The notes under the pieces were generated by a model. That model worked only from the letters and a program-made list of their open reading frames with translations. It was not told where the DNA came from and searched no databases. A DNA stretch of 64,000 bases from NCBI GenBank assembly GCA_963664115.2, contig CAXWPJ010000009.1:800001-864000 (forward strand), read 5' to 3'. This DNA is from Terriglobia bacterium. Its GTDB lineage: Bacteria; Acidobacteriota; Terriglobia; 20CM-2-55-15. Both the position numbers and the translations under genes were made by a program. Positions 28,064 to 32,124 of this stretch are shown in pieces; position 1 is the stretch's first letter; every line of letters begins with the position of its first letter.

Positions 28064-28414
28064 GTGGGACAACCTGAAATCGACAAGGAAGATCTGTTTA
28101 TCGAGGCCGTTGAAGCCTTTGGCGACAACAAGTTCGACGAGGCTATCGAACTCTACCAGAAAGCTTTAGCCATCGATCCAAACTACGCCGACGCTCTTCA
28201 CGGGCTGGCTCGAGCCCAATTCGACGGTGGAAAAGTAGACAACGCGATCACCACGGCGAAACGATTGACAGAAATTGACCCCGACGACCCTCTGGCCCAC
28301 ACCAGCCTGTCGATGTTTTACCAGTCGAAAGGCCTGATCGAAGACGCAGAACGCGAGGGCAACGTCGCGCGTGTACTCGGCTGGAAACAGGACCTCAAGA
28401 AGGGGAAGGAATAG
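28064..28414 (+). CDS. Small TPR protein
   Basis: GAGGAGG RBS and GTG start; TPR motifs (AIELYQKALAIDPNYADAL). Confidence 0.85.
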   Translation: MGQPEIDKEDLFIEAVEAFGDNKFDEAIELYQKALAIDPNYADALHGLARAQFDGGKVDNAITTAKRLTEIDPDDPLAHTSLSMFYQSKGLIEDAEREGNVARVLGWKQDLKKGKE

Positions 28415-28514
28415 ACCTTCTCCCGGCGAACCGCTTTCGCCTATCTCCTCTTTTTTCTTATCGATAATCCTCCTCGCCTGCCCAGATTGAGACAAGGCTG
28501 AGACAGCGCAAACG

Positions 28515-28544
28515 TTGACATTTAAAAGCAGCGCGGAATAGACT
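28515..28544 (+). promoter_or_regulatory. Putative sigma70 promoter for the cNMP-PilB gene
   Basis: TTGACA (28515-28520), 18-nt spacer, TAGACT (28539-28544). Confidence 0.5.
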
Positions 28545-28581
28545 AGGTTGGTCGAATTAGGGTCTTTAGCGACAAGCACAT

Positions 28582-30672
28582 ATGTCGACAACCGTAGCCG
28601 ATACCGATCAACTCATTGGTTTTCTAAAAAACGTCAGCCTTTTCGAGGATTTGCCCGAAGAAAGCCTGGTAAAACTCGGATCCTGCCTGAAAATCACGGA
28701 GTTTCCCCCGTCTGAAAGCGTCATGCGCGAAGGGGCGCCGGGCGTCTCGATGTATATCATCAAAGACGGCATGGTGGAGGTCCGGAAAAAGGACCCGGTT
28801 ACAGGCATCGATTTCCTCGTGGCGCAGTTGGGCCCGGGAGCGGCCGTTGGCGAAATGTCCCTGTTGACGGGTAAACCGCGCTCCGCGAGCGTAAACACGG
28901 TCGAACCGACCTCGGTCTACACGCTGACCCGCACAGATTTCCGCAATCTTCTCACGCAATACCCGGAAATCTCCCTGGGCCTGGCCAGAATTCTGGCAGA
29001 GCGACTCGAAGAAGCCAACAAGCAGGTCGGCGTCGAGTTCGTCAGCCTGACGAAAAACATCAACTTCGACCCCCGGGTCGTGAGCCTGATTCCTCAGAAC
29101 ATTCTCACCCAACATAAAGTGGTGCCGATCGCATACACGAACAACGCCCTCACCCTGGCGATGGTGAATCCGTCCAACCTTGTCGCCTTCGACGATGTCC
29201 GGCGCTACGTCAAGGGAGTCATCATCGAACCCCGCGTATGTACCGACGAGGAATTCAAAAAGTTCATGGCCCAGGAATATCCGAGGCTGATGAATGTCGA
29301 CGAGGAAATCGACAAGGATAAACAGGCAGAGAAACTCAAGAGAGACCTCGAAAGAAAGAAGAAGCAGCATAAGGAAGAAGCGGCAGCTGCGGTTTCCAGC
29401 ACGCAGCAAGAAAACCTGGAAGACCTTGAAGCCGAAATTCTGAGCGGCATCGAGGTCCAGGAGGACGAAGAAGAGAAGCCGTCGGAAACGGATCTCCAGA
29501 CCGCGTCGGGAGACGCGCCTATCGTCCGGCTGGCCAACAACATCCTGGCACTGGCGATCAAGAAGGGGGCCAGTGACATCCATCTCGAGCCTCAGGAAGA
29601 GGGCGTGCGGGTGCGCCTCCGAATAGACGGTGTCCTTCGAGTGGAAAATGTCCTATCGCGCAAGATCATGCTCCCGCTGATCTCACGCTTCAAGATCCTG
29701 TCACGCCTGGATATTTCCGAAAGGCGCCTTCCGCAGGACGGGCGTATTTCGATCAAGTTCGAGGGTCGCGGCATCGACTTCCGTGTATCCACGGTGCCCG
29801 CAAAATTCGGCGAGAAGGTCGTCATGCGGATTCTCGACAAGAGCGCGGCGCTCTTGCCGCTGGACAAGATCATCAACCATCAGGAAACGATGGAAAAGGT
29901 CCGGTGGATGATCAATCAGCCTTACGGCATCATCTACGTCACGGGACCGACCGGATCAGGAAAAACAACTTCGCTATACAGCTCGCTGGGCGAGATCAAC
30001 TCCCCGGGCACCAATATCTCGACGGCTGAGGATCCCATCGAGTATGACCTGGCGGGGGTCAACCAGATCCAGACCCACAAGGATATCGGCCTCGATTTTG
30101 CCCGGGTGCTTCGAGCCTTTCTTCGACAGGACCCCGATGTCATCCTCGTCGGCGAGACCCGCGATCGGGAAACAGCCGGGATCGCCGTTGAAGCTGCCCT
30201 TACAGGCCACCTTGTGTTCACAACTTTGCACACGAACGACGCCCCGGGGGCGTTCACCCGTCTTGAAGAAATGGGCGTCGAACCCTTCCTGATGTCGAGT
30301 TCGACCATCGGCATCCTCGCACAACGCCTGGCACGCCGTATCTGCACGAAATGCAAAGAAGAAGTCAAGCCGGACGAAGCGACCGCCAAGTTCTTCGGTT
30401 ACGACATGAACGACCTGCCGACGTTCTATAAGGGCAAAGGTTGCGACAACTGCGGTGGCAACGGGTACAAGGGGCGTGTCGGTGTCTACGAAGTCCTTCT
30501 CATGAACGACGAACTCCGGCGCTTGGTTTCAGGCGGAGCCAAGTCCGATGAAGTCCGGGATTGCGCCGTGAAGCACGGCATGATGACGCTTCAAAATTAT
30601 GCGGAGTTCCTCTTGAAAGAGGGACTGACGACGATGGAAGCGGTTCTTGGTGTCATTTCGATCGCAGAGTAA
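28582..30672 (+). CDS. PilB/GspE-family secretion ATPase with N-terminal cyclic-nucleotide-binding domain
   Basis: cNMP cassette GEMSLLTGKPRSASV; T2SSE_N-like segment; ASDIHLEP, RRLPQDGR, Walker A GPTGSGKTT, EDPIE, Walker B VILVGETRD, TTLHTND, CxxC...CxxC. Confidence 0.92.
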   Translation: MSTTVADTDQLIGFLKNVSLFEDLPEESLVKLGSCLKITEFPPSESVMREGAPGVSMYIIKDGMVEVRKKDPVTGIDFLVAQLGPGAAVGEMSLLTGKPRSASVNTVEPTSVYTLTRTDFRNLLTQYPEISLGLARILAERLEEANKQVGVEFVSLTKNINFDPRVVSLIPQNILTQHKVVPIAYTNNALTLAMVNPSNLVAFDDVRRYVKGVIIEPRVCTDEEFKKFMAQEYPRLMNVDEEIDKDKQAEKLKRDLERKKKQHKEEAAAAVSSTQQENLEDLEAEILSGIEVQEDEEEKPSETDLQTASGDAPIVRLANNILALAIKKGASDIHLEPQEEGVRVRLRIDGVLRVENVLSRKIMLPLISRFKILSRLDISERRLPQDGRISIKFEGRGIDFRVSTVPAKFGEKVVMRILDKSAALLPLDKIINHQETMEKVRWMINQPYGIIYVTGPTGSGKTTSLYSSLGEINSPGTNISTAEDPIEYDLAGVNQIQTHKDIGLDFARVLRAFLRQDPDVILVGETRDRETAGIAVEAALTGHLVFTTLHTNDAPGAFTRLEEMGVEPFLMSSSTIGILAQRLARRICTKCKEEVKPDEATAKFFGYDMNDLPTFYKGKGCDNCGGNGYKGRVGVYEVLLMNDELRRLVSGGAKSDEVRDCAVKHGMMTLQNYAEFLLKEGLTTMEAVLGVISIAE

Positions 30673-30973: not shown

Positions 30974-32124
30974 GTGGTCCCCGTTAAACAGACTGTAACT
31001 TATCAAGATTTCGCCGGCCGCGCTGGACTTTAGCAAGGATGTCGGAAGCCGTTGCAGTCCAGATGAAGGGTTTCGGGTCTTCATTGTGACGAGCGAGGTA
31101 GTCCTCCACGGCCTGGATCAACTCGGGGACCGAGCGGAAAACGCCACGCCGGAGTCGTTGCTCGGACAGATCCCGGAAAAAGCGCTCGACCATGTTGAGC
31201 CACGACGCACTGGTTGGCGTGAAGTGCACATGAAAACGCTTGTTACGCTTGAGCCAGTTGACGACTTTCTGATGTTTGTGAGTCGCATAGTTGTCGCAAA
31301 TAATGTGGATCTCCTTATCTTTCGGCATGGCGCGTTTGATCTGATTCAGAAACCGGATCCATTCCTGATGGCGATGCTTTGGCATGCAGGTTCCGATGAC
31401 CGAACCGTCCAGGATGTTGAGCGCGGCGAAAAGCGTGGTTGTCCCGTTACGTTTGTAATCGTGGGTCATGGTGCCACACCGCCCCTTCTTCAGAGGTAAC
31501 CCGGGTTGCGTGCGGTCCAGGGCCTGCATCTGGCTCTTCTCATCGCAGGACAAGACAATGGCGTTTTCCGGTGGGCTCAGATACAGACCGACCACATCCT
31601 CCAGCTTTTCGGCGAATCGTTTGTCGTTGGATAGTTTGAAGGTTCGTGACAGATGAGGCTTCAGTCCATGGACCCGCCAGATTTTCCCGACCGTGGACTC
31701 GCTCACGCCAACGGCCTTCGCCATCGAGGCCCGACTCCAGTGCGTCGCGTTCGGGGGCTTCTCTTCCAGTGTCTTCTTGACGATCCGGGCTCGCTTCCGG
31801 CGACTGATCGTGGGAATCCGTCCGCTTCGCGGCGCATCCTTTTCGATCCCAGCCAAGCCCTGTTCCACAAAACGATTGCGCCAGCGGCCCGCTTTCTGGC
31901 GCGTGATCTCCAAGCGGGCGGCGATCTCATAATTGTTCCGACCTTCAGCGGCCAGTAATACAATTCGGGATCGTTCCGCCAACCGGACCGATGTACTCCG
32001 GCTTCGACTCAGTCGCTCCAACTCCATCCGCTGCTTGTCATCCAATTCAATGGTCGGTGCTTTCCTCATTCTCTATTGGACGTTGGAAAGCTATTTTAGT
32101 TACATTACTTCGAGCGGGGTACAC
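30974..32124 (-). mobile_element. IS630-family insertion sequence, apparently intact
   Basis: Imperfect 27-bp TIRs (GTGGTCCCCGTTAAACAGACTGTAACT and GTGTACCCCGCTCGAAGTAATGTAACT); TA duplication at 30972-30973 and 32125-32126 within CTAG. Confidence 0.92.
30984..32069 (-). CDS. IS630-family DDE transposase
   Basis: N-terminal HTH domains; SCDEKSQ, HDYKRNGTTTLF, CDNYATHK, SWLNMVERFF. Confidence 0.96.
   Translation of the reverse strand: MRKAPTIELDDKQRMELERLSRSRSTSVRLAERSRIVLLAAEGRNNYEIAARLEITRQKAGRWRNRFVEQGLAGIEKDAPRSGRIPTISRRKRARIVKKTLEEKPPNATHWSRASMAKAVGVSESTVGKIWRVHGLKPHLSRTFKLSNDKRFAEKLEDVVGLYLSPPENAIVLSCDEKSQMQALDRTQPGLPLKKGRCGTMTHDYKRNGTTTLFAALNILDGSVIGTCMPKHRHQEWIRFLNQIKRAMPKDKEIHIICDNYATHKHQKVVNWLKRNKRFHVHFTPTSASWLNMVERFFRDLSEQRLRRGVFRSVPELIQAVEDYLARHNEDPKPFIWTATASDILAKVQRGRRNLDKLQSV

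Follow-up and report, generated by a model that had tools for sequence, protein, structure and literature searches.

The subject of this account is one gene in a 64,000-nucleotide stretch of the genome of a Terriglobia bacterium (phylum Acidobacteriota; positions 800,001 to 864,000 of contig CAXWPJ010000009.1, called "the window" in what follows). Judged by its motifs, the 696-residue product is a complete ATPase of the PilB/GspE family, and it carries a CRP-type cyclic mononucleotide (cNMP)-binding domain exactly where known relatives carry MshEN_N, the four-helix subdomain that binds cyclic di-GMP (c-di-GMP). The reading favored here is that the protein is a second extension motor, gated by cyclic AMP (cAMP), for the type IVa pilus that is encoded elsewhere in the same genome. 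As a whole we would give that reading roughly even chances; its parts differ in security. The protein very probably binds a cyclic mononucleotide and there is a good probability that cAMP is the main ligand; that it acts as a motor on a type IVa machine is reasonably likely. Binding of cAMP or cyclic GMP (cGMP) is something that we infer solely from the residues of the pocket and from the co-occurrence of cyclases.

A sensor domain in the place of MshEN_N

Pfam divides the protein into three: cNMP_binding (residues 40-127, E 1.7e-18), the MshEN/T2SSE_N domain PF05157 (162-233, spanning model positions 13-84 of 90) and T2SSE (308-688, E 7e-125). A first-pass annotation of the window had described a cNMP domain with an intact phosphate-binding cassette standing in place of the MshEN helices, no RLGxxL motif, and complete ATPase motifs and zinc site; all of this is borne out. 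The cassette reads G90-E91...P99-R100-S101-A102; the sole loose match to the MshEN motif RLGxxL, KLGSCL at residue 31, lies inside a helix of the cNMP fold; Walker A (455-462), the Asp box (E483/D484/E487), Walker B (D519...E525), the His box (H543/H550) and the four zinc-site cysteines are all found. Of the CAP/CRP-type domain everything is present (eight-stranded barrel, GE...R cassette, hinge and C-helix), and R141 in the C-helix presumably occupies the position of CRP R123. The C-terminal helix-turn-helix of CRP/FNR regulators is absent: an alpha/beta docking subdomain (N1D, the retained part of the N1 domain) comes after the C-helix instead.

Residues 1-240 were modelled with AlphaFold from a 79-row alignment (mean predicted local distance difference test score, pLDDT, 88; predicted template modelling score, pTM, 0.58), and the model sets out the same order: CRP-type barrel, C-helix at 128-148, a low-confidence hinge at 148-150, alpha/beta domain. 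The annotation had the C-helix running straight into the alpha/beta half of T2SSE_N: the succession of domains stands, but the flexible hinge in the model speaks against one rigid element. The N-terminal part finds CRP-family and kinase cNMP domains as its structural matches (2PQQ, Z 19.4; Clr-cAMP 7PZA, Z 18.2; Foldseek places GlxR/CRP best). N1D (residues 147-234) was folded separately, searches with the whole module having returned mostly cNMP domains; modelled alone, it superimposes on residues 60-145 of Vibrio cholerae MshE (5HTL; Z 13.9, root-mean-square deviation 2.1, 86 residues aligned), with further matches to Xanthomonas PilB (7LKM, Z 12.3), PilF (6F8L, Z 11.7) and XpsE and a weaker one to EpsE (2BH1, Z 7.1). 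The c-di-GMP-binding four-helix subdomain of MshE is residues 1-64 (PMC5013675); since the N1D match begins where MshEN_N ends, the cNMP domain takes the exact place of the latter.

Conservation was scored over 212 proteins having both module and ATPase, down to about 31% identity (12 module-only rows were excluded). G90 and E91 are kept in all 212, A102 in 210, R100 and the C-helix R141 in 209 each, and the spacing from R141 to P171 of N1D is 29-31 residues in every one. Within the N-terminal module, conservation over 79 rows taken from genomes peaks in the cassette (0.91, versus 0.60-0.77 elsewhere); to go by the alignments, the nucleotide pocket is under selection. The MshEN motif occurs in none of 195 full-length homologues, while a strict Walker A is found in 180, the Asp box in 184 and the zinc site in 192.

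The cNMP-headed motor is, on this and the following evidence, a conserved family and not a one-off. With residues 1-310 as query, 678 proteins were found among 7995 candidates, and all 120 of those listed share the same three Pfam domains. In GTDB, 287 of 344 pattern matches are relatives; the best 80 of these, from which all GTDB locus counts below are taken, carry with few exceptions Acidobacteriota labels (Terriglobia, Vicinamibacterales), and the one nearest to the window's gene, at 91%, is from Terriglobia. Sensor and ATPase lie in a single open reading frame (ORF) at 73 of the 80 loci; of the others, four are cut off by the end of a contig and in three the frame is split. Within the family, 27 of 35 genomes carry the gene; at class level 15 of 81 do, and at phylum level, where a single protein served as the query, 6 of 401. 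More distant members come, by source names, from Syntrophorhabdaceae, Sericytochromatia, Obscuribacterales, Riflebacteria and Deltaproteobacteria. Four ESM Atlas clusters (1307, 339, 57 and 169 members) share the architecture, Myxococcota being the commonest phylum; their automatic names already spell it out.

Some members are degenerate. Nine divergent ones (P0188, P0291, P0292, P0295, P0297, P0302, P0306, P0315 and P0322; those with names are from Sericytochromatia and Obscuribacterales) keep the pocket and the Walker A Lys and have lost the Asp and His boxes, and a Riflebacteria protein (P0198) has lost both the pocket Arg and the ATPase motifs; the nine would fit a regulatory use in some lineages. 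Two proteins (P0165, P0193) consist of a cyclase, a Ser/Thr kinase, a linker and cNMP-N1D without ATPase, the module seeming to have been taken from this motor lineage. PilT-like frames of 587-800 residues with long N-terminal extensions also occur in carrier genomes (L267-L271); none of the five that were checked contains the cNMP-N1D module.

What kind of ATPase, and for which machine?

The general features of a GspE/PilB-type ATPase (PF00437) are all there: N2D and a RecA-like C-terminal domain, all boxes, and, as marks of the assembly type that set it apart from PilT, the four-cysteine zinc site together with an N1 domain (the pilT model scores 170, its cut-off being 319). Formation of a hexamer would be expected from what is known of the family. 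The best solved relative is the Geobacter-type PilB 6OLJ (E 2.5e-133). Quick trees of the ATPase core (from the second, five outlying rows that were long or redundant and five cNMP rows that were redundant had been removed) group 17, then 28, cNMP rows with one cyanobacterial GspE/PulE protein, at support values of 99 and 92 in the Shimodaira-Hasegawa-like approximate likelihood ratio test (SH-aLRT), and apart from operonic PilB and GspE. A single origin of the fusion is not rejected by the approximately unbiased (AU) test (p 0.64).

The first-pass annotation had the motor plugging into a type IV pilus or type II secretion system (T2SS) encoded at a distance, and the genome (97% complete) does provide a full type IVa set: besides four PilC/GspF genes and four secretins there are pilMNOPQ, pilC-pilS-pilR, pilT/pilU, pilins and minor pilins. 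At each of three other PilC/GspF loci an ATPase gene of the platform's own lies alongside. In front of the type IVa pilC stands only a decayed remnant of an MshEN-pilB (G000:C2:473438-474100; L008:10427-11071), directly upstream of pilC-pilS-pilR; the operonic MshEN-pilB is lost or partial in three genus relatives, and two family relatives have it intact. A second PilB, which stands alone and has tandem MshEN motifs of the c-di-GMP type (G000:C6:159270-161114, L001), passes TIGR02538, the type IVa PilB model, and is the likely replacement for the decayed operon copy. In each genome examined for it (this one, G402, G412 and G413) a canonical PilB exists beside the cNMP motor. PilT is present in 49 of 50 carrier genomes, versus 121 of 151 genomes of the class; 27 of 30 carriers have PilM.

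That the pilus system of this genome is dead was considered and rejected, the apparent breaks in pilT/pilU being assembly errors: a pilT duplication and a pilU frameshift (G000:C12:55000-57600, L007) are contradicted by contigs of all four runs, which imply products of 358 and 407 residues. A pilM frameshift (G000:C2:1018198-1019245, L102) is seen in the assembly and in run X1, which may be the source, and is absent in three of four runs (348 residues); it is a population-level difference. A further ATPase of the genome (G000:C9:465256-468026, L005) is divergent and GspE-like, and in it degenerate helices resembling MshEN are repeated; it has no platform nearby and is followed by a 288-residue gene that we take to be HDOD-like.

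Which nucleotide?

Seven PF00211 matches in the genome point to six or seven class III cyclases, three of the matches showing an adenine-specifying Lys and a Thr-type motif, the pair that we take to be the signature of adenylate cyclases. The possible receptors are few: there are only three PF00027 proteins, namely the 696-residue motor, a lactamase-fold hydrolase-cNMP-GGDEF protein and a Na/H exchanger. Searches with PF00027 and HTH_Crp_2 detected no CRP in the genome; the one CRP candidate, the single HTH_Crp_2 match, is a 340-residue protein without a cNMP domain, presumably an ArsR-methyltransferase, and was rejected. The hydrolase-cNMP-GGDEF protein (G000:C2:120468-122738, L009) has an intact cassette and is a candidate converter of cAMP into c-di-GMP signals; the exchanger (G000:C9:211396-214062, L010) has its cNMP domain at the C-terminus.

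Across genomes, carriers of the motor and cyclases go together: in one evenly drawn sample of the class a cyclase at E<=1e-20 is found in 14 of 15 carriers versus 23 of 66 non-carriers (the exceptional carrier has a weaker match), and cyclases are found in all 30 of 30 picked carriers. At 4 of the 80 GTDB loci a CHASE2 cyclase with the adenylate signature starts about 55 bases or less downstream on the same strand, and in one of these genomes (G417, partial, 1.6 Mb) it is the only cyclase found. As a general rule, cyclase adjacency was rejected: the four belong to one clade, the count comes from 80 GTDB loci of which 61 have at least 1 kb of downstream sequence, and none of 47 metagenome loci shows it. 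A GAF-HD-GYP gene lies divergently upstream at 20 of the 80 GTDB loci (within 600 bases at 16) and at 4 of the 47 metagenome loci; phosphodiesterase, motor and cyclase stand in a row at three loci. Enzymes of the GAF-HD-GYP kind can be cAMP-activated c-di-GMP phosphodiesterases, as Tlr0485 is (PMC8846402, PMC10124867).

The residue after the pocket Arg, position 101, is Ser in this protein and variable in the family (Thr 44, Ala 13, Ser 11, Val 5 and Gly 4 among the 79 rows). A Ser or Thr at this place can contact guanine in cGMP binders; it is also found in proteins activated by cAMP, for instance in Bd1971, where either nucleotide elicits a response (PMC6717892). Sequence by itself would allow either cAMP or cGMP.

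A proposed mode of action and its competitors

How might the motor work? From what is known of the cNMP family, cAMP (perhaps also cGMP) would be bound by G90, E91, R100 and S101, and the barrel would then swing on the C-helix, as it does in Bd1971 and CRP. The swing would reposition N1D through the short junction of fixed length (29-31 residues from R141), and the shift of N1D would gate docking on PilM/PilC, that is, the loading of the motor at the pilus base; N1D in known systems meets the stator (PMC11656802). The motor would compete with PilT, and would compete or take turns with the c-di-GMP-type PilB, much as TfpB shares a machine with PilB (PMC11656802). Control would be exerted on docking more than on the bare rate of ATP hydrolysis: Chloracidobacterium PilB has an inhibitory N-terminus, and because c-di-GMP left its hydrolysis unchanged (PMC6957770), no change in the bare rate would be expected here. 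Activation by the ligand, by analogy with MshE, is ranked ahead of inhibition, and Bd1971 provides the precedent of a cNMP domain gating an enzyme (PMC6717892). One can extend the proposal to a pilus with two swappable motors, a PilB with c-di-GMP-bound MshEN and a PilB with bound cAMP: cAMP from a CHASE2 cyclase would turn the latter on while a cAMP-sensitive GAF-HD-GYP enzyme lowered c-di-GMP and turned the former off; cAMP control would be post-translational and would dispense with CRP, and the degenerate members would be cNMP-gated brakes. In this full form the scheme is speculative and rather unlikely.

A number of observations weigh against the reading of the protein as a cAMP-gated motor of the type IVa pilus. 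As to class, it scores below the cut-off of the type IVa PilB model TIGR02538 (559.8; cut-off 675.65), partly because model positions 1-49 are replaced, while the controls pass (the stand-alone PilB at 703, operonic PilB at 788); it scores below that of the T2SS model TIGR02533 (562.3; cut-off 630.25) and lies outside a gsp operon, while the genome's own GspE, beside gspF/gspD, passes at 648; and it is far below that of the TfpB model NF053534 (429.5; cut-off 850). A clade of the cNMP proteins with host PilB alone is borderline rejected in the AU test (p 0.043); because, with the cyanobacterial row included, a PilB grouping (p 0.585) and a GspE grouping (p 0.185) both survive, the partner machine is one that we infer. 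Extension ATPases are usually machine-specific (PMC11656802), and PilT is common regardless of the motor (80% of the class). As to the signal, the carrier-cyclase association, although it holds within three families, is overstated by its Fisher value (6e-5), since the genomes are kin; cyclase adjacency, confined to one clade, probably reflects a single event, and is seen neither in this genome nor at the metagenome loci; the commonest signalling neighbor, GAF-HD-GYP, belongs to a class of cyclic dinucleotide enzymes; and position 101 is mostly Thr or Ser (55 of 79), which permits cGMP. Finally, no RNA evidence of expression was found: in the one RNA run screened, the fraction of words present was 0.05.

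What else might the protein be? It might be a cNMP-binding modulator instead of a self-standing motor, priming assembly in the manner of TfpB, forming mixed hexamers with the c-di-GMP-type PilB or blocking the platform until released by cAMP. The canonical PilB alongside it in this genome and in G402, G412 and G413, the nine divergent members that pair an intact pocket and Walker A Lys with missing Asp and His boxes, and the inhibitory N-terminus of Chloracidobacterium PilB all lean that way; the retention of every catalytic motif by this copy and by most of the family leans the other, and on balance a modulator is unlikely. It might also be a cNMP-gated motor of another machine, either a T2SS or the one encoded by the second cluster (pilC-pilB-pilMNO), which is common in these Acidobacteriota: the GspE and PilB models score it alike, the GspE grouping survives the AU test and the genome holds three further platforms. 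Those platforms, however, have ATPases of their own next to them, nearly every carrier has PilT, the best solved relatives are PilB proteins and N1D fits PilB/MshE better than EpsE, so that this assignment strikes us as quite unlikely.

Two further proposals concern the sensor and not the motor. Many cNMP-like folds bind no nucleotide, and the domain could be a ligand-blind element for dimerisation or spacing that replaced the MshEN_N helices; the pocket Arg is indeed lost in 3 of the 212 members. Against the concentration of conservation in the ligand-contacting segment, and against the tracking of carriers with cyclases, this seems very improbable. Or the ligand may not be cAMP, in which case the domain swap would have changed the reader of a signal and not the signal: it could be cGMP, whose binders use the Ser or Thr after the pocket Arg to contact guanine N2 (PMC6717892), or a cyclic dinucleotide held in a cNMP fold, as in Xanthomonas Clp, which binds c-di-GMP and not cAMP (PMC4624772); the divergent upstream GAF-HD-GYP genes speak for a ligand other than cAMP as well. 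We regard such a ligand as improbable: the canonical mononucleotide cassette is invariant, all four adjacent cyclases bear adenylate signatures, Ser follows the pocket Arg in cAMP-activated CRPs and Bd1971 too, the residue varies within the family (Thr, Ala, Ser, Val), and GAF-HD-GYP enzymes can themselves be cAMP-activated, as Tlr0485 exemplifies.

Relation to known systems

The closest known systems are the MshEN-type ATPases (V. cholerae MshE; PilB of Myxococcus xanthus, Clostridium perfringens and Chloracidobacterium; Thermus thermophilus PilF), which are alike in having an N-terminal sensor, N1D and a zinc-binding T2SSE. They differ in the sensor itself, a 140-residue cNMP domain here replacing the four-helix c-di-GMP subdomain, and at none of the loci examined does the cNMP motor gene adjoin pilC, pilM or a secretin gene. 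An ATPase of this kind with a cNMP domain has already been published as an architecture: MshEN-T2SSE-cNMPbind (Desulfobacterales; Desulfotalea psychrophila DP2226) is listed with GAF- and REC-MshEN-T2SSE in Supplementary Table 4 of PMC5013675. DP2226 shares the fusion of cNMP sensor and T2SSE, but it retains MshEN and has the cNMP domain at the C-terminus, whereas here the domain is N-terminal and replaces MshEN_N, an order absent from that table as available. Full-text literature searching, with most subscription journals outside its coverage, found no description of an N-terminal cNMP-PilB. The N-terminal replacement of MshEN_N is a real, conserved and unstudied variant of the ligand-gated pilus motors.

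TfpB of Acinetobacter baylyi is likewise a phylogenetically separate extension ATPase beside a canonical PilB, though the accessible text of PMC11656802 describes no cNMP domain for it, and its model, as said, does not admit the cNMP motor. Bd1971 (Bdellovibrio; cNMP-EAL) and CRP/Clr/GlxR have the same CRP-type barrel, cassette and long C-helix, Bd1971 with the same Ser after the pocket Arg; the output here is a motor docking domain and not an EAL enzyme or a helix-turn-helix. With the Pil-Chp/CyaB/Vfr system of Pseudomonas aeruginosa the use of cAMP as a pilus-promoting signal would be common ground, but there cAMP acts through transcription, and PMC11656802 describes cAMP as controlling type IV pili through transcription (Vfr) and c-di-GMP as the only nucleotide that controls PilB directly; here the receptor would be the motor itself, in a genome without a detectable CRP. 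If the motor does bind cAMP itself, it would give cAMP a rapid way of acting on pilus extension. A well-understood allosteric switch at the MshEN_N position would also be a handle on how ligand binding at N1 controls assembly while ATP hydrolysis barely changes, and the cNMP-N1D module, at 240 residues, is small and easily tested.

The locus

The features of the locus are collected in Table 1.

Table 1. Features of the motor gene and of its upstream region (positions in the window)
Feature	Position	Strand	Basis
TPR gene, 116 aa	28064..28414	+	Pfam TPR
Sigma-70-type promoter candidate TTGACA-18-TAGACT, 37 nt before ATG	28515..28544	+	family conservation
cNMP-N1D-T2SSE ATPase gene (P0001), 696 aa	28582..30672	+	ORF + Pfam
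CRP-type cyclic-nucleotide-binding domain, residues ~9-149	28606..29028	+	Pfam PF00027 E 1.7e-18; fold matches
Phosphate-binding cassette, residues 89-102 (G90, E91, R100, S101, A102)	28846..28887	+	homologue conservation
C-helix, residues 128-148, includes R141	28963..29025	+	AlphaFold model
MshEN_C / N1D alpha-beta docking subdomain, residues 147-234, without four-helix MshEN_N	29020..29283	+	PF05157 + fold match
Charged, poorly conserved linker, residues ~237-307	29290..29502	+	sequence
T2SSE ATPase core (N2D + CTD, the C-terminal domain), residues 308-688, Walker A/B + Asp/His boxes	29503..30645	+	PF00437 E 7e-125
Tetracysteine zinc site C588, C591, C621, C624	30343..30453	+	sequence; motif in 192/195 full-length homologues

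The motor gene stands alone from pilus genes, with its own conserved promoter candidate. As had been noted at first pass, no pilin, PilC or secretin gene is nearby: none of these, and no PilM gene, lies within the window. Around 85 genome loci (two of which are duplicates), queries for PilC, PilM, PilN, PilO, PilQ, secretin and pilin returned no more than two pilin-like genes; around 47 metagenome loci and 25 short family loci they returned nothing. The promoter candidate to which the annotation had also pointed is, taken alone, at chance level (1 found, 1.3 expected), yet 18 of 20 intergenic regions from the family retain TTGAC-N17/18-(T/G)AGACT, versus 0.019 expected in shuffles, an optimistic figure in that the pattern was drawn from the alignment itself. 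(The 20 regions are that of the window and those of 19 of 25 family loci; three loci lacked the TPR anchor and three fell outside the length range.)

The small TPR gene upstream, to which the annotation had drawn attention, is present as described, and precedes the motor gene at 22 of the 25 family loci; it is not a general component of the system. None of 75 more distant loci among the GTDB 80 has the TPR orthologue alongside, and at one locus (L213) an inserted gene splits it off while the promoter stays with the ATPase; the TPR protein was rejected as a generally required chaperone or partner and is a neighbor in this family only. An ABC permease pair lies on one side of the two genes and an IS630 transposase on the other. 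The latter lies directly behind the motor gene on the opposite strand (window 30984-32069, -), and an identical-looking copy of it starts at C10:468906.

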